64,000 nucleotides of DNA, from NCBI GenBank assembly GCA_050250895.1, contig JBFWNU010000002.1, positions 160,001-224,000 on the forward strand, written 5' to 3'. The translations under genes were made by a program, and so were the position numbers. The notes beneath the pieces were generated by a model. It ran no database searches and had not been told where the DNA came from. It worked only from the letters and a program-made list of their open reading frames with translations. Every line of letters starts with the position of its first letter. Position 1 is the first letter of the stretch. This document shows, in pieces, positions 10,912 through 23,479 of this stretch. This DNA comes from Vulcanimicrobiota bacterium. GTDB lineage: Bacteria; Vulcanimicrobiota; Xenobia; Xenobiales; JADMJV01.

Positions 10912-11442
10912 ATGAGCGCCGGCTTCGGAATTGGCCTGACCCGGGTCTTGTTGCCCATCGCCCCCCTCGCCCAGCGACTGCAGCTGCTCCAACGGCTGGT
11001 CGAACAACTTCAATTGCCGCTCTTGCGCGACTTTGTCCATCCCGCCGACGAGCCCGGCTATCGACAGGTCAGCGAACGGGCCGAATACCGTGTCGTCGAG
11101 GTGAACCGCGAGAGCTGGCGCTGGCTCGAACCCGAACAGGTCGAGCAACTCCAACAGGCAGTCGGCCAGCATTGGGCCGATTCTGGCTCGTTTGAGGAAT
11201 GCATGCAGATCTGTGACGAAGAGACGGGATTGGTGATTCCCGGCGTGGCCGCCAGCCTGCTCAACTCCAGCGGCAAGGTGCTCTGGCAGGGCCCCGACTC
11301 GTCACTGGTGGTCAAAGAGATGGCCCTCGCCCTCGAGCAACTCCGGCAGCGCGAGGGCGGGCCAGGGGTTCTAATCCGAGCACGAGAGCTGTTCGAAGTG
11401 GCTCTGGAGCATCGGTTGCCGTTCTATCTGGCCTGGGGCTAA
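10912..11442 (+). CDS. Hypothetical protein
   Basis: 3' part of the 10516 ORF from ATG 10912; protein-like composition. Confidence 0.55.
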   Translation: MSAGFGIGLTRVLLPIAPLAQRLQLLQRLVEQLQLPLLRDFVHPADEPGYRQVSERAEYRVVEVNRESWRWLEPEQVEQLQQAVGQHWADSGSFEECMQICDEETGLVIPGVAASLLNSSGKVLWQGPDSSLVVKEMALALEQLRQREGGPGVLIRARELFEVALEHRLPFYLAWG

Positions 11443-13136
11443 GGCAAGAACGGATTGCGGGCCACGAACCCGTCGATCACCCCGTTGGTGTCGTCGGCTA
11501 CCAGGTTCTCTGACTCCGAGTGAAAGACGATGAATCGCCCGTCGCCCGAAATCATGCCGAAGAAAGCCGCGCCGCCGTCGGCCGGAGGGTTTCCCTGAGG
11601 GTCCAGGTTCAAACGCGCGGTCTGACCGGTGAGCCGGTCATAGATGAACATGTCTCTGAGGTTGTTGGTGTCTACCAGGTCCACCAGGTTGGTGGCGAAC
11701 GAACTGAAGGCGACAAAGCGTCCGTCATCAGAGATGGTGGGAACGACCGAGTTTCCATCGGTCTCGGCCCCGTTGAGACCCTGGGTGATGCGCTCGATGG
11801 TGTTGGCGGTACGATCGAGCAAGAAGATGTCGGTGGCTCCGTTGGTGTCACCAGCTACGAGATTGGTGGCGTTGGATTGAAATACCAGCAGGTTGCCGTC
11901 CGGGGTCATGAAGGGTTGATTGCTACTTCCGTCAGGTTCGCCGAGCGTGCTGTTGTTGATTCGGGTGGTCGTGTTGGCCACGCGATCCCGAAGGAAAATG
12001 TCGGTGACTCCATTGAGGTCACCCGTCACCAGGTTGGTGGCGAAGGAGGAAAAGGCCACCAAATTTCCGTCCCCTGACGACATGGTCTCGGCCGAACCGC
12101 CGTCGGGTTCGCCTGCGGAGGCAGAAATGCTGAGCAACTCGACCTGACCGGTCATCCGGTTGCGGGCGTAGAGGTTGAGCTGGAAGTTGGTCAAGATGGG
12201 ACTGCTCACCACGTTGAGGCCTTGACTCAAGAAGAAGGCCAGATTGCCATCGGCCGACAACTCACCCACGCGATTGTCGTTGTTGATCTCCATCCCGAAC
12301 TGGTCTAGCGAGACTCGTTCGGTGGTGCCCGCCTGAAGGTCCCGCACGAAGACATCCGATTGTCCGTTGGTGTCACCCGGCACCAGATTGTCAGCGTCGC
12401 TGGTGAAGATCACGAACTGCTGATTGCGGGAAAGGCGGGCCTGATTGCTGTCGCCATTGGCCTCGAGGTCACTCGAGTCCAGGCTCACCCGGGTCGTCTG
12501 ACCGGTGGCCCGGTTCCTCAGAAAGATGTCGCGATGGCCGTTGCTGTCGTTGCTCACCAGGTTGGTCGCGTCCGAACCAAAGACAATCAGGTTTCCATCA
12601 GAGGAAACGAAATTCTTGAGGTCGAGCGAGGCCGCTCCATCGGCCTGATTGCCATTGGAGTCGACGGTGAAGCGTTCCAGCGGAACAAAGCCGATGGGGG
12701 TCGGTTCTTCGATCGGGCTACCGGCCTCGAATTTGACCTGGGTCACCTGGCCAGGATTGACTACCACCAGTTGCTCCTGGTCCAGAAAGCTGGCTCCGCT
12801 ACTATCGAAAATTTGGAGCGAGAGCAGATGGGTGCCGGGCACGACCTGGCTGACGGTAAAGCTCTGCAGGGCCAGGCTACGGTCAAGGTCAAAGGCCACC
12901 AACGGGTGCACCTGGCGGCCTGTCTCGGGCTCCGACAGACTGATCAGCAGTTGGTCGGCTCCGCTTTGGGCCAGCACGGCCTCCTGCCGGGGGATGAGGG
13001 CCGGAGCCAGGCGGACCGAGACGCTTCCAGCCGAGACCCCGGGCCCGGCGCTGGCGGTGCCGCCGGGTGCGCTGCCACCCCCTGTGCACCCAGCCAGTAG
13101 AAATAGACAGAGAATGACCGTGACAAAAGACTTCAT
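11439..13136 (-). CDS. Lipoprotein with a TolB/PD40-like beta-propeller (DTNG..DIFxRD repeats)
   Basis: Lipobox LAGC; five to six repeats of S-DG..VAF-S-ATNLV-GDTNG..DIFLRD. Confidence 0.85.
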   Translation of the reverse strand: MKSFVTVILCLFLLAGCTGGGSAPGGTASAGPGVSAGSVSVRLAPALIPRQEAVLAQSGADQLLISLSEPETGRQVHPLVAFDLDRSLALQSFTVSQVVPGTHLLSLQIFDSSGASFLDQEQLVVVNPGQVTQVKFEAGSPIEEPTPIGFVPLERFTVDSNGNQADGAASLDLKNFVSSDGNLIVFGSDATNLVSNDSNGHRDIFLRNRATGQTTRVSLDSSDLEANGDSNQARLSRNQQFVIFTSDADNLVPGDTNGQSDVFVRDLQAGTTERVSLDQFGMEINNDNRVGELSADGNLAFFLSQGLNVVSSPILTNFQLNLYARNRMTGQVELLSISASAGEPDGGSAETMSSGDGNLVAFSSFATNLVTGDLNGVTDIFLRDRVANTTTRINNSTLGEPDGSSNQPFMTPDGNLLVFQSNATNLVAGDTNGATDIFLLDRTANTIERITQGLNGAETDGNSVVPTISDDGRFVAFSSFATNLVDLVDTNNLRDMFIYDRLTGQTARLNLDPQGNPPADGGAAFFGMISGDGRFIVFHSESENLVADDTNGVIDGFVARNPFLP

Positions 13137-13266
13137 GAATACCCCTCGAGGTCGAGGGAGTTTTCCTTTCGCGTCAGAAGTCCTTTATTGTATTCGTTGG
13201 GCCCGGGAGTGCCACGCTGGGATGCCAACGACAGGCCGTCAGTGATATCCCGCCGAAGCTCGACCC

Positions 13267-13626
13267 GTGAGGCGATGGTTCGAGGTGGCGGGGCTCCTCG
13301 CTTTGGCGGCAGTCCTGGCGCATCCCAGGCCTGACCTTCCCGAGCCAGCCACGGTTTTCTCGCCTTCCGAGCCGAGCAGGGTAGAGTCGTTGGTCGCCCC
13401 GATCACGGCGGGCTATCACCTCTCCCGTGATAACAAGCTCGAGGTGGATGGCCTCGCCCCTGGCAGTTTCTATCCCGCCCGCTGTGACGTGCTTTCAACG
13501 GCCGACGGAGGGACGATGTTCGTTCGCGACGACCGCGTCGAACGGCTGAGTGGATCTTCGCTCTCGGTGAACGGCTCGGTCCTGCTCTCGGTTGGGGATT
13601 CGCGCGACACGGTGCTGGCCTTTTAG
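13267..13626 (+). CDS. Hypothetical exported protein
   Basis: GTG start and a signal-like N-terminus. Confidence 0.5.
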   Translation: MRRWFEVAGLLALAAVLAHPRPDLPEPATVFSPSEPSRVESLVAPITAGYHLSRDNKLEVDGLAPGSFYPARCDVLSTADGGTMFVRDDRVERLSGSSLSVNGSVLLSVGDSRDTVLAF

Positions 13627-13740
13627 GTCACCCTCCGTCCCGCCGGCCAGTTACGCCCGGTGAGCTAACCGCGCTAAGGCCGAGAGTAGGAGTCTAGGAG
13701 CGCTGGCTTTGGTATCGGTCTGACCCGGGCCGGGTGATTC

Positions 13741-14574
13741 GAGCCACCACCTGTCCACTCGGGGGATGTCTTGGACGGCCAGATTCGGTTTCATGGATCC
13801 ACCATGATTCACAACGAAGATACAATGGGTGAGTTCGAGCAGCAGGATCGTCCCGCCAAGAAATGCGAGCCTGAGGGAACGATGCCCCATCGTTATCCCG
13901 CCCTCCTCACTCCGCTGGGGAACGAGACGCTGGTCTATCTGCCCCACTCCCAGAAAGCGATCTGCTTGAACGAGGTAGCCGGGGCCGTCTACCTGAGATG
14001 CGACGGAGAGACGTCGGTCGACGTGGCCGCTGAGGAAATCGGCTCGCGCGAGGTCGTCTGGCAGGCTCTAGAATCCTTCGCGGTGCACGGACTGATTCCG
14101 AGCGATACCCCCCGAGCCGCAGGCCTCGGCAGGCGCCAACTACTGAAGCTGCTGACCAGCGCGGCCTGCCTACCCGTCGTCTCGTCCGTGCTAGCCCCGA
14201 CGCCGGCTCGAGCGATGTCCGCTGCCTGTATTATCGAAAATTCGCCCACGACCAGTTGTGACCTGAGCGGCATTCCGATGGGGACGGTTCCCAACGACTG
14301 CACGTCTTGCTGCGGCGGAACCCTATGCGCCTCGGCTTGTCCAGACTGCAGCCAGTGCTTCTGTCTCCAGCGCCGCTTCTGTGTCGGGTTCGATTGTACC
14401 ACCGGTAGTTGCGCTACGGATACTCTCGTCACCGCGCGGAACTGCTACGACGACAGTACCGTCATGTTCGGGTGCAACTTTGCCGGGATCTGCCAGCGAA
14501 ACTGCGACGACGCACGGGCCGCGGCCGCCGTAGCCGGGGTGAGCTTCTACTCTTGCTGTGAGAGTTGCACCTAA
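13741..14574 (+). repeat. Direct repeat copy 1 (upstream region plus RRE-Cys-rich gene)
   Basis: gagccaccacctg...gggggatgtctt-gacggccagatt at 13741 recurs at 16091; homology runs to the stop codon. Confidence 0.9.
13882..14574 (+). CDS. PqqD/RRE-like domain fused to an internal Tat-like signal and a 20-Cys domain (copy 1)
   Basis: ETLVY...KAICLNEVAGAVYLRCDGETSV...VVWQALESF..HGLI is PqqD/RRE-like; then GRRQLLK + hydrophobic stretch + ARA; then 20 Cys. GAGGGA precedes ATG 13882; alternative in-frame ATGs at 13804 and 13825. Confidence 0.85.
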   Translation: MPHRYPALLTPLGNETLVYLPHSQKAICLNEVAGAVYLRCDGETSVDVAAEEIGSREVVWQALESFAVHGLIPSDTPRAAGLGRRQLLKLLTSAACLPVVSSVLAPTPARAMSAACIIENSPTTSCDLSGIPMGTVPNDCTSCCGGTLCASACPDCSQCFCLQRRFCVGFDCTTGSCATDTLVTARNCYDDSTVMFGCNFAGICQRNCDDARAAAAVAGVSFYSCCESCT

Positions 14575-14580
14575 CGACTT

Positions 14581-16038
14581 TTATCGCTTGGGTAGGGGTA
14601 ACTCGAAGCGAATGCTGGTGCCTTGACCCGGGCTACTCTCGAGCCAGAAGCGGCCTCCCACCAGTTCGCAACGCTCGCGCATACCGGCAATCCCGTGGCC
14701 GGGTAGCTCCTGGTATTCGAAACCCGACCCGTCATCTTCCACTCGGCCTTTCAGACGGCCATCGAGGGCGCTGATGGCCACGCGGACCTCGGTCGCCCGG
14801 CCGTGGCGCTGGGCGTTCTGCACGGCCTCCTGGACGATGCGGTAGGCGAAGAGCGAGGTCAAGCCCGCCGTCACCGGAGTGCTCAAGGCCAGTTGGCACT
14901 TGACCCGACAACTGTCGCTGCTGGCTGCCCGAGCCAGATCCTCGAGGGCCGTGGCCAGTTGGACCCCTTCACCCACGGGGCTGCGCAGACTTCTGATCAT
15001 GCCTGAGAGTTCTTTGCCCATCCGTTGGCCAAGGGTAAGGGCCTGCTGTAGCGCCTCTCGGGCGTCCTGGGGATTCTTGTCCTGAAGGGTCGTGGCCAGT
15101 TGCAGCTGGACCACCAGGGTGGCCAATTCCTGGGCCAGGGCATCGTGCAGGTCGGCGGCCAGCATCCGGCGTTCCTGTTCCTGAAACCGCACCATCTTTT
15201 CGAGGCGTCGGGTGGTGATGTCTTGCACAGCCCGCAAGATGCGGTCTCCCTGAGGGGTCGCCTGAGGCCCCGCCGTTGACAATTGAACCCAGACCACGGC
15301 CTGACCGCGGGTCATGCGCAGCTCCAACTGAAATTGGTCTAGTTTTCCGCGGCAGAGGTCGGCGAACAGTTCGGCCTCTTCGTGACCATCGCTTTCGTGG
15401 ATCAACTCGTGAAACGAGCGTCCGATCAGTTCGCTGTCACCCCCGAACTGATAATCGAAGGCCCGGTTGATCTCCACGATGCGATCCTGGCGATCGACCA
15501 GAGCCATGGCCGCGGCGCTGGTTTCGAAGAGCACAGCGAAACGACTTTCCTCGGCGTCCCAGATGCGTTGCAGGTCCGAGATCGTGGCCTTGCCCAGGGT
15601 GGCCCCATAGAAGCCCTGATGCTTTTGGTCCAGGCATCGCTCCCAGGTGTCGCCGGGCAAAGCTCCGATCTGCACGAAGAAGTCCAGGTAGTCGAGGTAG
15701 TTGGTGCACTCGAGAAACTTGTCATCTTTGACCCGGGCAAAGAGGGCCCCCGGCCAGGCCACCGACCGTCCGGTGGCCCGGTGGGTCCCGCACAAGAGCC
15801 AGCGTCCCGCGATCCCGTCTCCCTCCTGATACGTTTTCTCGATGGTCACCCTCACATCCGAGAGGATCTCGGAAAAGGTGCGAAAGACGGCTTTGAACGA
15901 CTCGAGGCCGACCGGGTCGTTAACCAGTCCCAGTGATAGGTTCTCGGGGTGCATCAGCTCTTCGATAGCGTCGAGGTCCCCCTCTTGCCAGACCCGCCGA
16001 AACCATTCGTGAATCAGCCAGGTGGAGTCGTTGGTCAT
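14581..16038 (-). CDS. Soluble histidine kinase: SnoaL-like + PAS + HisKA_3 + HATPase
   Basis: WFRRVWQEGDLDAIEEL (SnoaL/NTF2-like); FAVLFE...IVEINRAF (PAS); ERRMLAADLHDALAQ; YRIVQEAVQNAQRH, DDGSGF, GIAGMRER. Confidence 0.9.
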   Translation of the reverse strand: MTNDSTWLIHEWFRRVWQEGDLDAIEELMHPENLSLGLVNDPVGLESFKAVFRTFSEILSDVRVTIEKTYQEGDGIAGRWLLCGTHRATGRSVAWPGALFARVKDDKFLECTNYLDYLDFFVQIGALPGDTWERCLDQKHQGFYGATLGKATISDLQRIWDAEESRFAVLFETSAAAMALVDRQDRIVEINRAFDYQFGGDSELIGRSFHELIHESDGHEEAELFADLCRGKLDQFQLELRMTRGQAVVWVQLSTAGPQATPQGDRILRAVQDITTRRLEKMVRFQEQERRMLAADLHDALAQELATLVVQLQLATTLQDKNPQDAREALQQALTLGQRMGKELSGMIRSLRSPVGEGVQLATALEDLARAASSDSCRVKCQLALSTPVTAGLTSLFAYRIVQEAVQNAQRHGRATEVRVAISALDGRLKGRVEDDGSGFEYQELPGHGIAGMRERCELVGGRFWLESSPGQGTSIRFELPLPKR

Positions 16039-16090
16039 GGCTGCCGTTTCGACATGGATGAGCCAGTTCCTGAAGAATCCTGTAGAAGAA

Positions 16091-16921
16091 GAGCCACCAC
16101 CTGCCCACCCGGGGGATGTCTTCGACGGCCAGATTGGGTTCCATAGACCCACCATGAGTAACAAAGAGCATCCAATGAGCGAACACGAGCGACCAGCCAC
16201 AAAACGCGAGTCGGAGGGAGCGATGCCTCTTCGCTATCCCGCCCTTCTCACTCCGCTAGCGAACGAGACGCTGGTCTATCTACACCACCTCCAGAAGGCG
16301 ATCTGTTTGAACGAGGTCGCGGCGGCCGTATACGCTCGATGTGACGGAGAGACATCGCTCGAGGTGGTCGCTGAGGAGATCGGTTCTCGCGAGGTCGTCT
16401 GGCAGGCCCTGGACTCTCTCGCGGAACACGGACTGATTCCGAGCGATACCCACCGAGCTGCGGGCCTTGGTCGGCGCCAACTGCTGAAGCTGCTTGGCAG
16501 CGCGGCCTGCCTACCCGTCGTCTCGTCGGTGCTAGCACCGACTCCCGCTCGGGCGATGTCGGCGGCGTGTGTGATGGAGAACCCGCCCACCACCAGCTGC
16601 AGCATCGACGGTATTCCGATGGGGACGGTTCCCAACCAATGCAGTCCCTGCTGTGGCGGGGCCTGTGCCACCGCCTGTCCTACTTGTAGCCAGTGCTACT
16701 GCCAGCAGTTTCGCTTCTGCCAGGGCTTCGATTGCACGACCGGGACTTGCTCTGGAGACACCTTTATCACGGCGAGAAATTGCTACGAAGACGGCACCAG
16801 CACTGACGGCTCCTGCCTCTTCGCGGGGGGACAGGTTTGCCAGCGCGATTGTGACGCTGCTCGGGCGGCCGCAGCCAGTGTTGGGTTAAGCTTCTACTCC
16901 TGTTGTGAAAATTGCAGTTGA
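16091..16921 (+). repeat. Direct repeat copy 2
   Basis: Paralog of 13741-14574; about 7 mismatches in the first 67 nt by eye. Confidence 0.9.
16223..16921 (+). CDS. PqqD/RRE-like domain + internal Tat-like signal + 20-Cys domain (copy 2)
   Basis: Same architecture as copy 1 with all 20 Cys aligned; GGAGGGAG upstream; alternative ATGs at 16154 and 16175. Confidence 0.85.
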   Translation: MPLRYPALLTPLANETLVYLHHLQKAICLNEVAAAVYARCDGETSLEVVAEEIGSREVVWQALDSLAEHGLIPSDTHRAAGLGRRQLLKLLGSAACLPVVSSVLAPTPARAMSAACVMENPPTTSCSIDGIPMGTVPNQCSPCCGGACATACPTCSQCYCQQFRFCQGFDCTTGTCSGDTFITARNCYEDGTSTDGSCLFAGGQVCQRDCDAARAAAASVGLSFYSCCENCS

Positions 16922-16925
16922 CGAG

Positions 16926-18074
16926 CTAGAGGGCAGTTCTTGATGGGTTTAGAGGCAGGTGGCACTCGATTCGCGTGCCATCGCCGAGACCCGACCGTAG
17001 TTGGAAAGTGCCGCCGCAGGCCTGACAGCGCTCGCGCATACCGACAAGTCCGAGGCCTCCAGCAGTCAGGCCGGGTTCAAAACCGACCCCGTCGTCTTCG
17101 ACGGCGAGATAAAGACTTGCATGTTCGAGGCAGAGTTCGACCCGCACGGACTGGGCACAAGCGTGTTTGACCACGTTGGAAAGAGCTTCCTGGATGATCC
17201 GACAGGCGAAGTGGGCAGCGACCCCTTGCACCCGGTCGAGCTCACCCCGGATGCTCCATTCGACCTGCAATCCTTCCAAGGACGGTCTCTCTCGCAATTC
17301 GACCAGGCGAAGGGCCAGGTTTTGGCTGCCTGCTAGCAGTCCGGCTCGAAGGCGAGCCATGGTAGAATTGAGCTCGCGACTCATGGCTTGAACCAACCGC
17401 ATGCAGCGTTTGAGAAGTTCAGGTGACGGCCTGGCCTGGTGCTCTCCGGCTTGGAGGTGGACCCACAAGGTGGCCAGATCCTGGGCTAGTCCGTCGTGAA
17501 GTTCGCTGCAGAGCAAGCGTCGCTCGGTGGCCCGCAACTGCTCGAGTTGCTCGCGAGGCGAGGCCGTCGGGTCGAACGAGCCCTCGAAGGCGGCGGCCAG
17601 TTCGGCTTGGGACGGACTCTCCGACAGGATTGGCACCGCGGCTCGGGGTCGTACCAAGAACTCTTCCCCGGCCAGACCTCGAGCCACAGCCTCTTCGGGA
17701 ACGATCTCGAGTTGCTCGAAGAGGTTCATGAAGTCGAAGTAGTTCTGGGATTCGAGGATCTTGCCGTCGCGATAGGTGCCCCAGGAGGAGCCCGGCCAGA
17801 AGATGGCCTTGTCCTTGGTGCGATGTCGAGCCCGGGCTAACCAGCGAATCGAGAGTTGCTCGCCTTGAGCCATCCAGTCGGTGATCTCGACATCGAAGTC
17901 TTTGAGAAACGCGTTGATCGACTCATAGAAAGAGAGATAGCCCTGGGGGTCGATCGCTTCCGTCAGCAAGCCCTCGGCCTGACCATCGAACATTGTGAAA
18001 ATCAGGTCTTTCTCTTCGTTCTCCCAAACCCGCTCGAAAAATTCGACAGCAGTCTCGATGCTTGGCTTACCCAT
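16926..18074 (-). CDS. Soluble histidine kinase: SnoaL-like + HisKA_3 + HATPase
   Basis: FFERVWE...RDGKILESQNYFDF; ERRLLCSELHDGLAQ; IIQEALSNVVKHA, DDGVGF, GLVGMRER. Confidence 0.9.
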   Translation of the reverse strand: MGKPSIETAVEFFERVWENEEKDLIFTMFDGQAEGLLTEAIDPQGYLSFYESINAFLKDFDVEITDWMAQGEQLSIRWLARARHRTKDKAIFWPGSSWGTYRDGKILESQNYFDFMNLFEQLEIVPEEAVARGLAGEEFLVRPRAAVPILSESPSQAELAAAFEGSFDPTASPREQLEQLRATERRLLCSELHDGLAQDLATLWVHLQAGEHQARPSPELLKRCMRLVQAMSRELNSTMARLRAGLLAGSQNLALRLVELRERPSLEGLQVEWSIRGELDRVQGVAAHFACRIIQEALSNVVKHACAQSVRVELCLEHASLYLAVEDDGVGFEPGLTAGGLGLVGMRERCQACGGTFQLRSGLGDGTRIECHLPLNPSRTAL

Positions 18075-18169
18075 CACAGTACCTTCTTGTTCTGCCCGCC
18101 TATTCCTGGACGCGCTTATCCCGCCAGGGCTCGATACGAGCCTGAGGATGGCCAGTTGGGTGAAGCGAG

Positions 18170-18473
18170 TCACCCTTTTCTTGAACCCGGTCGCGGGTCC
18201 GACCGAATAACAACACGCCGTGAGGCTCTGGTCGCGTTGGGAAAGGCGGCTCTACTGCCGGTAGTGGCCAGTGCCGTCGTGCCCATGCCTGGGGCGGCCG
18301 CTTCGGTGGGCGTATTCGAGTGTCAACGGGGTGGCCGGTAGTTGTGGGCAGACCTGCAAGCCGAATCCGGGCGACCCTGATTTTGGTGAAATCAGAGTGT
18401 GTGGCTCTTTGTGGCCAACGGCCCCTGCGGCTACATTACGCAGGCTGCCTCACCCGTCTGTCCGTGCACCTGA
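18170..18473 (+). pseudogene. Decayed third RRE-Tat-Cys-rich gene
   Basis: Pieces in shifting frames: TLFLNPVAG / TRREALVALGKAALLPVVASAVVPMPGAAAS..EC / GSCGQTC...VC / GPCGY...VCPCT-stop (18473). Confidence 0.6.
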
Positions 18474-18477
18474 GAGA

Positions 18478-19107
18478 CTAGGCGCCAGAGAATCCCCTGG
18501 CAGTGGCTTCTACGGCCAGGGTGGTGCGGTCAGAAACCCCGAATTTACTGAAGAGGCTGTTGAGGTGCACTTTGATTCGGCTGACCGACAAGTGTAGCTT
18601 GCCGGCAATCGCCGTGTTGCTGTCGCCATCTACCACCAGGCGCAAAACGCTCTGCTCGCGCTCGGTGAGCCGGGGCACGTCCGAAGCCTCTGGCCGACGC
18701 AGCGATTGCAGCAGGGGGGCGGCGATCTGGCCGCAGAAATAGGTGCCACCGCGGGCCGCGGCCTGGATGGCGGTAACCAGTTCCTCACGTCCGATCGTCT
18801 TGAGCACGTAGCCGCTGGCCCCCGCCCGGAGTGCGGCTCGCACCTTCTCGGGTTCGTCGTGCATGCTGAGAATGAGGACCGGGAGCCCACGGTGGCGCGA
18901 CACAATCTGCTCGGTCAGTTCGACCCCACAGCCTCGACCCAGCGACAGGTCGACCAGAGCCACATCGCAAGCGGTGTCCGCCAGCATCTGCATGGCGCTG
19001 GCGGCATCGCTCGCTTCACCCACGACCTGCACTGCATGATCTGCCTCGAGCAGGGCGCGCAGGCCATCCCGAAATAGTTGGTGGTCATCCACAAGTACGA
19101 CTCTCAC
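18478..19107 (-). CDS. NarL/LuxR family response regulator
   Basis: VVLVDDH, VALVDL (phosphoacceptor Asp), ILSMH, GYVLK, LTEREQ..L HTH. Confidence 0.93.
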   Translation of the reverse strand: MRVVLVDDHQLFRDGLRALLEADHAVQVVGEASDAASAMQMLADTACDVALVDLSLGRGCGVELTEQIVSRHRGLPVLILSMHDEPEKVRAALRAGASGYVLKTIGREELVTAIQAAARGGTYFCGQIAAPLLQSLRRPEASDVPRLTEREQSVLRLVVDGDSNTAIAGKLHLSVSRIKVHLNSLFSKFGVSDRTTLAVEATARGFSGA

Positions 19108-19136
19108 GGAGCGCCGAAATTCTTCGATGGGTAGGT

Positions 19137-19208
19137 ACCGACCTGCAAATACGGCCAAATGGGTCGCGCTCGGGTGGCCAGTTGGACACGGGAATCAACC
19201 AGGTCGGT
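19137..19208. promoter_or_regulatory. Inverted 9-bp boxes between divergent response regulators (candidate operators)
   Basis: accgacctg (19137-19145) and its reverse complement caggtcggt (19200-19208). Confidence 0.35.
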
Positions 19209-19224
19209 TCCCAAGTGGAGGGTC

Positions 19225-19818
19225 ATGACCGTCCTATTATTGGTCGAGCGCGGGCTCTTCGCTGAGGGGGTTGGTTGCCTGCTGTCGCACGGTTCGGACT
19301 GGCAAATACAGATGGTTTTTGAACTCGAGCCCGCCCTCGACTTGCTCGACCACAGCCAGGTCGTGCTATACGGTCTGGCTCTTGAGCACCTGAGTTCTCT
19401 CTGCCAGGCCAGCCGGACGCCGGTGCTGGTGGTTGCCGACGATCCTGGCGAGCAAGCGGTGAAGGCAGCGTTCGGAGTCGGGGCCAGCGGTTTCATCTCT
19501 AAGAACGTGGCCGGAGAGCAATTGCTGGCGGCCATCGAGGCGGTGGCCGCCGGAGGAATCTATGTCGGCCCGAAGGCTGCGCCCTCCATCCTGGCCAACC
19601 TGCGCCGCTTCGAAGGCGCCAGCCCCGTGCCGGTCAGTCCTCGTGAACAGCAACTGCTGGATCTGCTCTGCGGAGAAAGCCTCACCAACAGGCAGCTGGC
19701 GGCCCGTCTGGGCTTGTCTGCCAGCACCATCAAGACGCAGCTCAAGTCACTCTTCAACAAATACGGGGTGGGTGACCGGACGAGCCTCGTCCTCAAGGCC
19801 ACAGGCCGCAAGCGATGA
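19225..19818 (+). CDS. Atypical NarL/LuxR regulator (pseudo-receiver + HTH)
   Basis: GGAGG RBS; LLVERG and VVLYGL replace DD and the phospho-Asp; GASGFISK and SPREQQLL...TNRQLA HTH are intact. Confidence 0.85.
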   Translation: MTVLLLVERGLFAEGVGCLLSHGSDWQIQMVFELEPALDLLDHSQVVLYGLALEHLSSLCQASRTPVLVVADDPGEQAVKAAFGVGASGFISKNVAGEQLLAAIEAVAAGGIYVGPKAAPSILANLRRFEGASPVPVSPREQQLLDLLCGESLTNRQLAARLGLSASTIKTQLKSLFNKYGVGDRTSLVLKATGRKR

Positions 19819-19849
19819 CGAGCCATCGTCTGGCCTCCGGGGGGTGCGA

Positions 19850-20180
19850 TGGCGACTTCATCGGTTCGGGTGACTTCACCACCAACTCCACTCTGACTCC
19901 GCCGTTCTCGAATCCGTTTTCTGTAGTGGTTGGAAATCTCCACGGTGATATGATGCCGACCCTTGCTACCGCCTGCGGCTTCGGGCCAGGCGTGGTCGTG
20001 CACACCAACGATGGCAGTGGCGCCTTTACCCGGGCAAGCACCACCGCTACCGCATTGGTTCCCGCGGGAGCTCGCTCGGCGAGCTGGACGGAGATACGGA
20101 CCCGGACCTGGCCGTAACTGGCAATTTCTTCGATGAGATCGCGTTGTACTACAATCAGGGCGACGCGACCTCGAATTTTC
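19850..20180 (+). pseudogene. FG-GAP/VCBS repeat protein remnant
   Basis: SVVVGNLHGD..P-LA...NDGSGAF, then a frameshift to GELDGDTDPDLAV...YYNQGDAT. Confidence 0.6.
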
Positions 20181-20236
20181 AGCTCAATCGCGCCTGCCCC
20201 TAGAGGGGTTCTCGACTACCCCTAGAAGAGCGCAGG

Positions 20237-21214
20237 ATGGGGGATGGAGTGGGGTGGTGCCAGCAGCGCCTGCTGGCGCTGTGGGCCGATTTTCTAGCCA
20301 CCCGGGGGCGCAATTCGCAGGGCGGCGCGTGCGCGTCGTTCCTGCAGTTCTACGACGCCCTGGACGCCGCCATCGAAATCCGGCAACTCGATCCGGTCGA
20401 GACCATGGCCAACGGAGACGATCTCTTCGGCTATTGTCGACTGCAGGGTACGACCCGCCAGAGTGGGCGGGCCGTCGACTGGCGCTACGCGGTGCGGGTG
20501 CGCTGGCGTGACGGAAAGATCGTAGCGGGCCATCACTTCGCCGACTATTTGGCCCTCTTTCGCCAACTCGGAGTGGTCCCCGATGACCCCCGGGCCCCGG
20601 GTCGTTCGGGCGAGTTGATGTGGCCCGACCCGGTCCACGAGGCGCTGCACCGACACGAGGAAGAGCGAGCCAGTTTAGCCCGCGATATCCACGATGGAGT
20701 GGCTCAGGATGCAGCCGCTCTGTGGGCTTTTCTGTCACTGGAAGAGGCTCCGAACCACCGCCTGCGTGAGGCGGCTGACAGGATGCGTCTCGAGGCGCAA
20801 CGACTCAACGAGCACCTCAGCAACCCTCTGGAGCTGGGACAGAGCCTGGCCGAGGCGCTGACAGCGCTGGCTAGCCGGCACGCGCTCGAGAGCGACCTTT
20901 ATCTCGACCTGGACATCGCCTGTGACCTGGCAGGTAGCCTTCGAGCGGTTGTCTATCGTGTGGTTCAGGAGGCCGTGCAAAATGTGGCCCGCCATGCCGG
21001 TGTGAATACGGTCAGGGTGGTCTTGTACGAGCGCGCTGGCAGGCTGGTCGGGCAGGTGGTGGACCAGGGTAGGGGAGTGGGTTCGAGGCCGCCCGGTTTC
21101 GGAATCGCTGGCATGCTCGAACGGTGTCGTCTGGCCGGAGGGACCTGTGAGGTTCAGGCCACCCCCGGCGGGGGGACCACCGTTCACTTCGAGTTGCCGC
21201 TGGAGGTTCGATGA
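20237..21214 (+). CDS. Soluble histidine kinase with an N-terminally eroded SnoaL-like domain + HisKA_3 + HATPase
   Basis: WRDGKIV...ADYLALFRQLG; EERASLARDIHDGVAQ; YRVVQEAVQNVARHA, DQGRG, GIAGMLER. Confidence 0.85.
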   Translation: MGDGVGWCQQRLLALWADFLATRGRNSQGGACASFLQFYDALDAAIEIRQLDPVETMANGDDLFGYCRLQGTTRQSGRAVDWRYAVRVRWRDGKIVAGHHFADYLALFRQLGVVPDDPRAPGRSGELMWPDPVHEALHRHEEERASLARDIHDGVAQDAAALWAFLSLEEAPNHRLREAADRMRLEAQRLNEHLSNPLELGQSLAEALTALASRHALESDLYLDLDIACDLAGSLRAVVYRVVQEAVQNVARHAGVNTVRVVLYERAGRLVGQVVDQGRGVGSRPPGFGIAGMLERCRLAGGTCEVQATPGGGTTVHFELPLEVR

Positions 21215-22647
21215 AGAAGGACCCCATCCAGCTGCAAGCGGCTTTCTTCGAAGAAGTCTATGAGAAGCGCAACGTCGATGCGGTCTTTCGCTACTTCGAG
21301 GGCACCGCCGACGGCCTGGGTGTGGCCGAACCGCTGGATCCAGTGGCCTACCTAGACTTCTACAACGCCCTGACTTCGGTGGTCAAAGACATCCGCTTCG
21401 ACATCCTCGACTTTCAGCAGCAAGACGGGCGCCTGTTCGTCGACTTCGTCATGAAGGCTCGCTCCCGCCTCAAGGACGGAGCGGTGTTCTGGCGCTGCGC
21501 TGGCTGGGCCCACTATCGCGAGGGTAAGATGTCCCAGGCTCGAAATTTCCTGGACTTCGTGGACCTCTTCCGTCAGGTCGGGCTGGTGCCAGAGCAGGCC
21601 GTCGAGTTAGGATTGGCCGGGCACGAGATTCTGACAACCTCAGAGCTTGACCAGGCCACCCCGCCCGAGGTTCGGCGTCTTTTCTGGCCGAATTTTCGAG
21701 CCGGGGTGGCCCAGGGCTATCTTCCCTCGGAAGAAGAATTCGAGGTTCTGCTGCAATCGGCCACCGGGGGCGTGGTGGTGAGCGACGGCGACCAGACGAT
21801 CTTGGAGGTCAATCAAGCTTTAGCCAATCTGCTGGCCACCGATCCGACTCAACTGAGCGGACATCGCTTTTCGTCGCTGGTGGCGGGCAAAGGCAGAGAA
21901 GCCGAGGCCAGAGCCGCGGCGGCGGTGCTGTCCGGCCAACAGTCGAGCTACCGATTGCAACTGCAGCTTCAGGCCGGCCAGTCGCCCCGGGTGAAGGCCT
22001 GGGTGTCGGCGCTGCGAGGCCAACGTGACGGCCGCCCTGTCTTGCTGCGCTCGGTCCAGGCCAGCGATCTTCTCGACCACCTGGCCGCCCTTCAAGAAAC
22101 CGAGCGCCAGTTGTTGCTTACCGAGCTTCACAGCGACATAATCGAGCCGGTCCTCGACCTGTGGCGCAAGCTTCGGCCACAGGCCGCCGTCGACCCGAGG
22201 CTGCGCCAGCACTGCCTTGAACTGGTCGGTCGCCTGGCCGGCGAACTGCGGGCCAAAGTGGCCGCCCTGCGAAACCCCATCCTCGAGGGCGTTCCTCTCT
22301 CGCAGGCCTGGCCCGAGCAGCCTTTAGACCCGGCTCTTGACCAGGTCGCCCCAACCTGCGCCCTGATAGCCTATCGCCTGGTGGACGACTGCCTGACGCA
22401 CCTGGACGCCAGTCTCCCTTTCGAATTGGGACTCGAGGCAGGGCGGTTGCACGGTCGCCTGCGGCTGGGCCCGAACCCACCAGCCGAGCGCCTGCAAGCC
22501 ATGACTGATCGATGCGCCCTGGTCGGAGGCACTCTTTCCCTCGAAGAAACCGCGCTGAGCTTCGAGTTGCCCGTTACTTCCATCGCAAGTCGCAGACCAC
22601 GGCCCGGTGGTCCGTGCCCTCCACCGAGACTGTCCGCAGGTCGGTAG
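21211..22647 (+). CDS. SnoaL-like + PAS + degenerate histidine kinase (probable pseudokinase)
   Basis: FFEEVYE...REGKMSQARNFLDF; PAS ILEVNQAL; ERQLLLTELHSD; N and G boxes lost (LVDDCLTH, no DxGxG). Confidence 0.8.
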   Translation: MKKDPIQLQAAFFEEVYEKRNVDAVFRYFEGTADGLGVAEPLDPVAYLDFYNALTSVVKDIRFDILDFQQQDGRLFVDFVMKARSRLKDGAVFWRCAGWAHYREGKMSQARNFLDFVDLFRQVGLVPEQAVELGLAGHEILTTSELDQATPPEVRRLFWPNFRAGVAQGYLPSEEEFEVLLQSATGGVVVSDGDQTILEVNQALANLLATDPTQLSGHRFSSLVAGKGREAEARAAAAVLSGQQSSYRLQLQLQAGQSPRVKAWVSALRGQRDGRPVLLRSVQASDLLDHLAALQETERQLLLTELHSDIIEPVLDLWRKLRPQAAVDPRLRQHCLELVGRLAGELRAKVAALRNPILEGVPLSQAWPEQPLDPALDQVAPTCALIAYRLVDDCLTHLDASLPFELGLEAGRLHGRLRLGPNPPAERLQAMTDRCALVGGTLSLEETALSFELPVTSIASRRPRPGGPCPPPRLSAGR

Positions 22648-23479
22648 CCTCGAGCCGCTGCCCCAGCCAGACCTGATCGAAGCGATAGAGCGGCAAATCG
22701 TCGCTCACCGTGTTGGGCCAACCGTGTCCGGCCTGGCCATAGGCATCCCGAAGGGGAGCCATCAGCTTGAACACGCGATCGTGGGCGGGCGAGTTGAAGT
22801 CGCCCGCTACCAGGTCCGCCTCGAAACCGCTCATCAGGCCGCTCACCACCTCGGTCCGTTCCCGGCGGGCCGCGCGATGGTCGGCCCAATAGCTCGGCCT
22901 CCAGGGATCAAAGCGAACAATGGGCGGGCGCAGTCGCAGGCTGGCAAGCTCCAGGGGGCCAGCAGGCAAGAGCAGGCGGGCCCGGTGGACATGCACCTGC
23001 TGGGTCGAGGGCAAGTCCACCGTCTCGAGGGCAAAGCGTGAGGCGATGGAGGCCTCCGGGCCCCAGCTCACATGGGCTGGCTGCCACAGTCTTTCCAGCG
23101 CTTGGGCCAACTCTTCGCGCCGGGGCGACTCTTGCAGCAAGACGACATCGGGCTTGAGTTCGGCCAGTCGCTCGATCACCGCGGCCCGACTGCTGCAGTT
23201 GAGCGACACCACCCGCAGTTCACCGTCCTCTCCGCCTCGGCCGAACAGGGCTCGGCCTTCTTCGGGAATCACCAGCCCAAAGAGCAGCCAGCCCGCCAGC
23301 AAGGCCAGGCCCAGACGCCGCTCCAGCCACAGCGCCAAGCCCGTCCACAGCAGGCCGGGGATCAACCACACCCAGGGTGGCACGAACGTAAAGCCAGCGG
23401 CCCAGTCGGGAACGGACAGGTAGAGCCCGAAGCACGTCACCAGGCCCGCGAACCCCAGTCCGGCGACCCAACGCGCCAT
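22574..23479 (-). CDS. Membrane-anchored endonuclease/exonuclease/phosphatase family protein
   Basis: Three TM segments, VVSLN, PDVVLLQE, AGDFN, RFDQV, TDHRAV. Confidence 0.85.
   Translation of the reverse strand: MARWVAGLGFAGLVTCFGLYLSVPDWAAGFTFVPPWVWLIPGLLWTGLALWLERRLGLALLAGWLLFGLVIPEEGRALFGRGGEDGELRVVSLNCSSRAAVIERLAELKPDVVLLQESPRREELAQALERLWQPAHVSWGPEASIASRFALETVDLPSTQQVHVHRARLLLPAGPLELASLRLRPPIVRFDPWRPSYWADHRAARRERTEVVSGLMSGFEADLVAGDFNSPAHDRVFKLMAPLRDAYGQAGHGWPNTVSDDLPLYRFDQVWLGQRLEATDLRTVSVEGTDHRAVVCDLRWK

Follow-up and report, generated by a model that had tools for sequence, protein, structure and literature searches.

The island at positions 13741 to 22647 of the window (the 64-kb stretch of DNA that was analyzed, positions 160001-224000 of contig C2 in genome G000, which comprises 9.5 Mb on 17 contigs) encodes four histidine kinases with an N-terminal SnoaL/NTF2-like domain (HK1 to HK4), two NarL-type regulators (RR1 and RR2) and, between the kinase genes, two intact members and one remnant of a family of Cys-rich proteins, here termed P (P1, P2, and the P3 remnant). 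We consider it probable, at roughly 60%, that this island consists of two separate things, namely, a kinase module and P copies inserted into it, which are neighbors by accident rather than parts of one system. Arrays of such kinases are conserved without P, P genes are dispersed, and the duplication seen in the island concerns the P gene only; the reading as one system is therefore not supported. An earlier note on this DNA had proposed that an intracellular multi-kinase circuit controls the Cys-rich proteins. Such a signaling island would have meant a new regulatory logic; the evidence favors a juxtaposition that is due to chance or is very local, so that work on a circuit of probably no general occurrence can be spared. 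Of the two components, the P family is the more novel object.

Kinase arrays in related genomes

The SnoaL/NTF2-HisKA_3 kinases and their NarL-type regulator appear, from the comparison of gene orders, to form a conserved module that is lineage specific. The comparison set comprised G000 and 40 relatives (41 genomes), the relatives being draft metagenome-assembled genomes (MAGs) with a completeness of 65 to 98%. The SnoaL-domain profile matched in 7 of the 41 genomes, all belonging to family f1 (6 of the 15 other f1 genomes and 0 of the 25 genomes elsewhere), and tblastn located four SnoaL-kinase loci in G000, all inside the island. Searches with the N-terminal 200 residues of HK1 against 5.8 billion sequences returned 9 proteins including HK1 itself, the others being 61 to 66% identical; those with names all stem from Eremiobacterota-type MAGs, labeled Candidatus Eremiobacteraeota or Vulcanimicrobiota at NCBI.

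Five kinase-array loci were read in the relatives G002, G013, and G012, and a P gene was found in none of them. Contig C13 of G002 carries an HK2 ortholog (65% identity over the N-domain), a kinase lacking the ATP-binding boxes, a short kinase, an HK1 ortholog (56%), and an RR1 ortholog (46%). On C157 of G013, an HK3-like gene overlaps an HK4 ortholog and is followed by orthologs of RR1 (54%) and HK1 (58%), and C35 of G012 holds orthologs of RR1 (43%) and HK1 (60%). The two other loci, with three to four kinases in tandem on C208 of G013 and three on C249 of G012, are kinase-only stretches. RR1 orthologs, 43 to 54% identical, are present in three of the five arrays (G002 C13, G013 C157, and G012 C35). 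The pairing of these kinases with NarL-type regulators, assumed in the earlier note, is supported. No conserved target gene was found beside the arrays of the relatives; their neighbors vary between loci and include DUF4139/4140, a DsbA-like protein, Big_2, cadherin-like, collagen plus PD40, and a DEAD helicase. G013 and G007 have 6 and 2 SnoaL matches, respectively, and no P-family match. The SnoaL match of G004 is weak (E 2.2e-5) and lies in a nonkinase open reading frame (ORF) of 450 residues, 6.5 kb from a truncated P-like ORF.

HK1 (14581-16038, minus strand) has the architecture SnoaL-PAS-HisKA_3-HATPase_c, with Pfam matches to SnoaL_2 and SnoaL at 4.2e-16 and 1.6e-15 (59.8 and 57.5 bits). 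In HK2 (16926-18074, minus strand; SnoaL-HisKA_3-HATPase_c), the SnoaL_2 match reaches 26.4 bits at a cutoff of 27. HK3 (20237-21214, plus strand) is a short kinase with a truncated SnoaL domain, of which the C-terminal half alone is matched (26.6 bits), followed by HisKA_3 (21.1 bits at a cutoff of 24) and HATPase_c, and HK4 (21211-22647, plus strand; SnoaL-PAS-DHp) matches SnoaL_2 at E 0.012 (16.6 bits) and PAS, and neither HisKA_3 nor HATPase_c. The N-domains of the four proteins can be aligned with each other and share nine invariant columns. An NTF2/SnoaL-type domain is probable in all four kinases, HK1 alone being clearly above the Pfam threshold. The kinases were also correctly described as soluble, since a membrane-span-like segment is present in none of them (highest Kyte-Doolittle mean over 19 residues, 1.17, versus 1.84 in the signal of P2). 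Their best similarities in NCBIfam are to MctS, UhpB, NarQ, NarX, and LiaS, all far under the equivalog cutoffs.

Pairwise identities of 27 to 36% (33.5% for HK1 versus HK2) suggest that HK1 to HK4 are old paralogs. The H-box reads DLHD/ELHD/DIHD in HK1, HK2, and HK3, and these three proteins have the ATP-binding boxes N (QEAxxN), G1 (DDGxGF or DQGRGV), and G2 (GxGxxGM) and are apparently active kinases. HK4 has retained the phospho-acceptor His (ELHS) and has lost the N, G1, and G2 boxes, and is thus predicted to be a pseudokinase. The stop codon of HK3 overlaps the start of HK4, and a matching overlap is found in G013, where the HK4 ortholog (53% identical in the alignment, 51.5% by BLASTP) has lost the His too; comparable box-less members in G002 and G012 have retained it. 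A member without N, G1, and G2 boxes occurs in every SnoaL-kinase array read (window 21211-22647; L054:802-2226; L052:8988-10376; L058:1075-2484). By their sequences, these proteins look like a conserved pseudokinase partner that is translationally coupled to a short active kinase.

RR1 (18478-19158, minus strand) is a canonical NarL-type response regulator with REC (4.2e-26) and GerE (2.2e-14) domains and a complete receiver, including the DD pair, the acceptor Asp, the Ser, and the Lys. It is most similar in NCBIfam to MadR, MctR, and NarL, again far under the equivalog cutoffs. RR2 (19159-19818, plus strand; likely start, Met at 19225) combines a retained GerE helix-turn-helix with a degenerate receiver that Pfam barely detects as REC: the acidic pair is replaced by ER, the acceptor Asp by Gly, and the Ser/Thr by Ala. 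RR2 would accordingly be a pseudo-receiver regulator whose action is independent of phosphorylation, and since RR1 has the full receiver set and RR2 the substituted one, the module would contain one working and one phosphorylation-independent regulator.

The resulting picture is that of a cytoplasmic multi-kinase two-component module in which HK1, HK2, and HK3 would be active, HK4 would be a pseudokinase, and RR1 and RR2 would provide the output. The SnoaL pockets, with PAS in HK1 and HK4, may sense a small cytoplasmic ligand or state. We infer that the kinases converge on RR1 and that the pathway is modulated by HK4, whose translation is coupled to that of HK3, in the role of a partner or of a phosphatase-like element. 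Arrays with SnoaL input and a conserved pseudokinase may represent a multi-kinase network that is both compact and tractable, in a lineage without cultured members.

Dispersal and duplication of P genes

The genome of G000 contains 22 P loci on 7 contigs as determined by tblastn, and the P profile gives 33 matches when partial and PqqD-only ones are included. At none of the 20 P loci outside the island was a SnoaL kinase found within 6 kb, and clustering of the neighbors within 7 kb of the 22 loci revealed no recurrent partner; the most common neighbor class was that of REC-domain proteins, at 6 of the 22 loci, two of which are those of this island. P-family matches were obtained in 17 of the 41 genomes including G000, with 11 of 15 relatives in f1, 4 of 5 in f2, and 1 of 19 in f3. 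Within f1, including G000, P occurs in 12 of 16 genomes and the SnoaL domain in 7 of 16, and both occur in 5, which corresponds to the expectation under independence. Among the 40 relatives, P is present in 16 and the SnoaL domain in 6, and the two were never located together. The proposal of a circuit that controls the Cys-rich proteins is not supported by these data; what would speak against it, according to the earlier note, is a failure of kinase and Cys-rich homologs to co-occur elsewhere, together with regulators that do not bind or regulate the P promoters, and the first of these is largely what was found in the genomes searched.

A second claim, the amplification of a kinase/precursor unit, is contradicted. 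Self-comparison of positions 13001 to 23000 revealed a single nucleotide repeat, 13741-14577 versus 16091-16924, with 76% identity over 846 nt. The duplicated unit spans the P gene together with some 140 nt in front of it and 3 nt behind its stop codon, and it excludes kinase sequence; therefore, no kinase/precursor unit was amplified. The low identity between HK1 and HK2 and their separate orthologs in other genera (56 to 60% for HK1 and 65% over the N-domain for HK2) point in the same direction. The identity of P1 (13882-14574, plus strand) and P2 (16223-16921, plus strand) is 74% when the longer ORFs are compared by BLASTP and 78 to 79% for the trimmed proteins. Their dN/dS is 0.157 overall, with 0.159, 0.081, and 0.089 for the N-terminal domain, the signal, and the Cys domain, respectively, dS being saturated in the latter; with every segment at 0.16 or below, both genes are therefore under purifying selection and maintained.

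The upstream region of P1 (13741-13881, plus strand), which contains a Shine-Dalgarno-like GAGGGA 5 nt before the ATG at 13882, was copied along with the gene, and the copy occupies 16091-16222 of the divergent HK1-P2 intergenic region (16039-16222). Its first 67 nt (13741-13807 versus 16091-16157) are 89.6% identical and occur nowhere else in G000. A scan of the upstream regions of P1 and P2 gave no useful inverted repeat. An operator common to the island was also considered and rejected: one 8-mer, with at most one mismatch, is present in all five intergenic regions, but the same was seen in 4 of 20 shuffles. HK1 is convergent with P1, the stop codons being 6 nt apart, and HK2 is convergent with P2 (4 nt apart) and divergent from the P3 remnant (about 18189-18341, plus strand). 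This remnant retains the twin-arginine signal region (TRREALVALGKAALLPVVASAVVPMPGAAAS) and about 12 further residues, whereas the N-terminal and Cys-rich domains are gone; window 18210-18326 matches positions 84 to 122 of the P profile at E 1e-6.

A relative that is about 92% identical is represented by contigs from three DNA runs (X1-X3) of one study, which bridge 14405-16438 and 16413-18179. At 18179-18491, the 311-nt stretch with the P3 remnant is replaced in this relative by 4,100 other letters, and the array is therefore in flux; the replacing segment may hold an intact P3. Most probably, P1, P2, and the P3 remnant stem from a dispersed family, the first two as young copies, and were inserted between the kinases in this lineage only.

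Architecture of the P family

The P proteins were analyzed with alignments of 24 (A1) and 71 (A3) sequences and a motif census of 150 family members. P1 consists of an N-terminal domain resembling PqqD and the recognition elements (RREs) of peptides made on the ribosome and modified after translation (RiPPs), at about residues 1 to 83, a segment with the RRQLLK signal and an ARA site at residues 84 to 113, and a Cys-rich domain of 117 residues; P2 has the same architecture. Both signals read GRRQLLK...ARA, the site in P2 being A-x-A-S, and 20 Cys follow the predicted cleavage site in each protein, so that the twin-arginine motif and the approximately 20 Cys reported in the earlier note were found again. 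The same holds for the RRE domain, which was recognized by its modeled fold, the match to Pfam PqqD (PF05402) being under threshold with 15.9 bits for P1 and 16.3 bits for P2 at a gathering cutoff of 23.4. Among the 71 members, 23 match PF05402 at an E value of 0.001 or lower, the best at 1.7e-10, and the sequence pattern is of the PqqD type (LVY.P…LN..AA.V…CDG.T.). The AlphaFold2 (AF2) model, with pLDDT values of 88 to 97 over residues 1 to 70, has strands E8-12, E15-20, and E25-29, followed by helices H31-38, H46-53, and H56-68. In Foldseek, the best match was the lasso-peptide RRE TbiB1 (probability, 1.00; TM score by target, 0.67 to 0.69), followed by CteB, lasso B1, TigE, and McbB. The N-domain is thus predicted to adopt the RRE/PqqD fold. 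It is acidic in 133 of 141 members, with a median net charge of -5, which argues against DNA binding; a ToxR-like, DNA-binding reading of this domain was discarded because of both its charge and its topology.

Among paralogs, no other stretch of the protein is as well conserved as the signal segment (consensus, (S/T)RRxFL…AAALPVI.S…P.PA.AAS.), whose mean pairwise identity is 48%; the RRE and the core reach 30% and 32%, respectively (the core 22% when Cys is left out). A hypervariable core, which is weakly true by these figures, was set aside. Invariant positions are R84, A111, and S113; R85, L88, and P106 are conserved in at least 90% of the sequences, P106 being nearly invariant. RR-x-hydrophobic-hydrophobic followed by at least 13 uncharged residues was found in 141 of the 150 members, S or T before RR in 96, and A-x-A in 126; the most common residues after RR are F at +3 (81 members) and L at +4 (106 members). 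PF10518 matched 1 of 71 members (7e-4). TatC is encoded in G000 (C6:327186, 9.1e-63).

The tails of the P proteins in G000 have about 105 to 150 residues and 12 to 26 Cys. Counted after the predicted cleavage site, Cys residues are even in number in 59 of the 71 members of A3 (binomial p 1.3e-8, in a test that treats related sequences as independent) and in 19 of the 21 Cys-bearing rows of A1. Modeled alone, the Cys-rich domain reached a pTM of 0.74 and a pLDDT of 76.7, and Foldseek against the PDB gave no solved match (best E, 3.3). A lipobox-like A-S-[AG]-C is common, its Cys being conserved in at least 90% of the sequences, with Ala, not Leu, at position -3. VKOR was not found in the genome, and DsbB was not searched for. 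We infer that P is made as a preprotein whose N-terminal RRE-fold domain stays in the cytoplasm, that the internal signal of the twin-arginine translocation (Tat) type carries the tail across the membrane, and that signal peptidase I cuts at the conserved A-x-A, which would free, outside the cytoplasm, a domain of about 115 residues with all of its Cys in disulfides.

The family is large and, by atlas labels, extends over several phyla. A word-based search for homologs found three proteins; a profile search of 1.84 billion representatives gave 9,043 matches at an E value of 0.001 or lower, 4,821 at 1e-10, and 74 at 1e-30. The nearest atlas clusters are annotated as "hypothetical protein," have PF05402 on 30 to 89% of their members, and are labeled Actinomycetota, Thermomicrobiota, and Acidobacteriota. 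At the scale of the phylum, 51 of 301 genomes match the P profile at 1e-8, a tally that includes the unpublished genome G232; outside the class of the window, the matches are stand-alone PqqD-sized ORFs or an N-domain with the signal alone. The members that were read from this search have the N-domain and the signal in common, with tails of about 30 to 130 residues, some of them short and knottin-like. Short tails of 30 to 45 residues with 6 to 10 Cys in knottin-like spacing were seen in L069 (G109:C736) and in proteins P0131 and P0149, which stem from other genomes or from metagenomes. In some paralogs, two tandem RRE-like domains precede the signal (L009:6001-7080, L015:6001-6924, L018:6004-6909, and L027:6004-6879). 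In two neighboring paralogs, L014:6097-6552 and L014:8661-9137 (G000:C1:3776-3780 kb), both the RRE and the RR motif are absent and the protein begins with the hydrophobic segment; the two genes are part of a duplicated block of about 2.7 kb, and one of them has an odd Cys count (19).

Alternative explanations

Several observations weigh against accidental neighborhood. Divergent intergenic regions are shared by HK1 and P2 (184 nt) and by HK2 and P3 (about 115 nt), and the 67-nt upstream element is better conserved than the coding sequence (89.6% versus 76%), as expected of an operator. The relative with about 92% identity has kept the order P1-HK1-P2-HK2; therefore, the arrangement is no assembly accident and has persisted for some time. 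At the P locus C1:261698, a NarL regulator and a GAF-HisKA_3 kinase are encoded downstream. Two intact copies and one remnant in a 5-kb array are unlike the random insertion of a 22-member family, and some local advantage or mechanism is likely behind the P copies in the kinase array. Because the relatives are incomplete drafts, absences in them count as "not found." Taken together with the divergent promoters and the recruitment of P genes into the array more than once, these points lend some weight to the view that the SnoaL kinases, via RR1 and/or RR2, control P1 and P2 from the copied upstream element, forming a young, lineage-specific regulon of secreted Cys-rich proteins that may have captured two of the 22 P loci. 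We regard this as unlikely. Co-location was found in none of the 40 relatives, kinase arrays without P exist, and 20 of the 22 P loci in G000 have no such kinase nearby; no inverted repeat was detected in the two upstream regions, the five intergenic regions share no 8-mer beyond the level of shuffles, and recent gene conversion could also explain the identity of the 67 nt.

Other points concern the export of P rather than its neighborhood and speak against the Tat reading. Disulfide-rich proteins are usually Sec substrates, and the RR pair of the P proteins is internal, with a median position of 93 (n = 141) and at residues 84 and 85 in P1 and P2; it falls within the first 35 residues in 1 member only. 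As an alternative, P proteins might be single-pass membrane proteins, with an RRE/winged-helix domain inside and a Cys-rich sensor outside, or Tat/Sec lipoproteins with an acyl group on the nearly invariant Cys that follows A-S-[AG], serving as redox or metal sensors or binders of the envelope. A signal anchor could be provided by the hydrophobic stretch that follows RR over about 20 residues, the consensus A-A-S-[AG]-C is compatible with a permissive lipobox, the P profile touches MarR-type winged helices (E 0.02 to 0.2), and a Cys content of about 17% could bind metal. Such a role is nevertheless very unlikely. Against it stand the invariant A111 and S113 and the nearly invariant P106, and A-x-A is the pattern used by signal peptidase I; Cys counts that include the candidate lipid-bearing Cys are even in 59 of 71 members, whereas odd counts would be expected if this residue were acylated and the rest were paired; these counts are not preferentially multiples of four, unlike those of Fe-S ligands; and the acidic N-domain has RRE rather than MarR topology.

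P loci beside genes of modifying enzymes

The fold of the N-domain raises another alternative, which is that P1 and P2 are RiPP-like precursors whose modifying enzymes are encoded elsewhere in the genome, the kinases being unrelated bystanders. Precursor and modifying enzyme are not co-located in 13741-22647, and within G000 such a co-location was seen at one paralog locus only, C1:897 kb. In this RiPP-like operon (L012:5199-9986; G000:C1:896564-901351), all genes are on one strand: two P-family genes, whose products end in short tails that are rich in Thr/Ser and free of Cys, lie between those of a SAM methyltransferase, an HprK-related P-loop kinase (TIGR04352-like; below the cutoff at E 3.2e-14), and two sulfotransferases. 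Enzyme neighbors were examined at a few of the 27 P loci of relatives; there, Cys-rich members lie beside ORFs that resemble TIGR04352 (HprK-related kinase A), also under the cutoff, in G008 (E 4.1e-16; L066, G008:C59:109161-112805) and in G024 (E 2.8e-13; L031, G024:C105:6003-9710), and the G008 locus encodes a PF14907 nucleotidyltransferase as well. G000 has 14 HprK-related and 7 NTP_transf_5 matches; only 1 of its 22 P loci has such an enzyme within 10 kb. The core is, moreover, a predicted folded domain of about 115 residues (pTM 0.74) and not a short peptide, it is little more variable than the leader, and no precedent was found for an RRE on the substrate itself. That P1 and P2 are precursors of this type is hence unlikely. 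At the P locus C2:259013, a radical SAM gene lies some 5 kb away, which is near the chance level, given 42 such genes, and the single MNIO gene of G000 is on another contig, C7. In a further cluster, G000:C9:228058-241499, a PF14907 nucleotidyltransferase is found together with two HprK-related matches and with two matches to the P profile that are PqqD-only (C9:232281 and C9:236219), and we take this cluster to resemble a system of the HPr-rel-A type.

A broader proposal, which is tentative and has the odds against it, is that the P family constitutes a new kind of exported ribosomal product with its own RRE, in which RRE and Tat-like segment form a domain-sized, self-contained leader that is later discarded by signal peptidase. 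If so, the leader would dock tailoring enzymes supplied in trans, for example HprK-related kinases, sulfotransferases, and nucleotidyltransferases like those beside some members, or it would act as a built-in chaperone for export proofreading that restrains its own signal as long as the Cys-rich or Thr/Ser-rich cargo is not ready. An RRE within the presequence of the exported protein itself fits no current model of RRE function.

Relation to known systems

Several kinases that feed shared regulators are known from NarX/NarQ with NarL/NarP. As in NarL/HisKA_3 systems, the island kinases have a HisKA_3 DHp domain, an E/D-L-H-D box, and HATPase_c, and the regulators are of the REC-GerE type. Unlike in those systems, a SnoaL/NTF2-like domain at the N terminus, joined by PAS in two of the four kinases, provides the input in place of a transmembrane or periplasmic sensor, and the array includes a conserved pseudokinase and a predicted pseudo-receiver regulator. 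According to two reports, an NTF2-like SnoaL_2 domain is fused as a modulatory or sensing module to the extracytoplasmic function (ECF) sigma factors SigJ and ECF56 SigG1 (PMC5766207, PMC7730460). In both cases, an NTF2-like domain is linked to a protein of transcription signaling, but it is C-terminal on the sigma factors and N-terminal on the histidine kinases. A histidine kinase with SnoaL input was not found described in the literature search.

Precursors of the Nif11/NHLP type, such as the prochlorosins, have short cores and are cleaved at a Gly-Gly site; their transporter is dedicated, and their lanthionine synthetase is known. P proteins resemble them in their conserved, domain-sized N terminus, many scattered paralogs, and Cys-rich, variable C-terminal parts; the fold of the leader differs, and no Gly-Gly site, transporter, short core, or lanthionine synthetase was seen for P. 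The chaperones NapD, TorD, and DmsD, which bind Tat signal peptides, are separate proteins of other folds; as would be the case in P, a small cytoplasmic domain is placed beside a twin-arginine signal ahead of export. The P profile weakly matched the NapD-NapA signal-peptide entry 2pq4 (E 6). Among lasso-peptide RREs (TbiB1, PDB 5v1u; lasso B1, 6jx3), the P profile matches TbiB1 over its full length (E 0.022) at an identity of about 15%. Lasso RREs are enzyme fused or free-standing, whereas the P domain is N-terminal on a signal-bearing Cys-rich protein, and no lasso cyclase or protease is encoded near P genes.

Bufferins are described as signal-peptide-bearing, Cys-containing RiPP precursors that are modified by MNIO enzymes (PMC12452194, PMC11626156). 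Common to both are a ribosomal product, an export signal, and an RRE-type domain in the system, and Cys residues are functionally important in bufferins. According to these reports, the RRE of bufferin systems is on the DUF2063 partner, the signal is N-terminal and of the Sec type, and the MNIO gene is adjacent, whereas the RRE of P is part of the presequence of the exported protein and the MNIO gene is on a different contig. According to an RRE survey, 21% of PF05402 proteins exceed the length of a discrete RRE without other annotation, and the P family falls among these long proteins, flagged there as unexplored (PMC12710340). The fusion of RRE, twin-arginine signal, and Cys-rich domain was not found described in the literature search, although the supplements of PMC12710340 and PMC12452194 may list the family. 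Likewise, no paper was found in this search on the combination of such proteins with SnoaL-domain kinases and NarL regulators, of which the earlier note knew no description.

Other features of the island

The ORF positions, gene order, and domains given in the earlier note were reproduced by ORF and Pfam analysis. In agreement with that note, Pfam analysis of the ten island ORFs gave no match to a radical SAM, lanthipeptide synthetase, YcaO, peptidase, or ABC domain, and all 42 radical SAM matches of the genome are outside the window. Rfam gave no match in 13000-23000, and promoter and terminator scans of the island gave counts at the level of shuffles; the only sigma-70-like match, at 16049-16078, is not above shuffle expectation. 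Between RR2 and HK3 lies a frameshifted FG-GAP-like remnant (19815-20200, plus strand) with two repeat-like stretches in different frames, for which FG-GAP_3 was the sole Pfam match (E 0.0092, under the cutoff) and no paralog was found in G000. Upstream of P1, the window encodes a PD40 beta-propeller protein resembling a lipoprotein (11439-13136, minus strand). A 33%-identical relative of this gene with collagen repeats (L055:9985-12900, minus strand) adjoins a SnoaL kinase in G007, and the P gene at C5:209370 is preceded, at a distance of 107 nt, by a further paralog, with a lactonase-type propeller.

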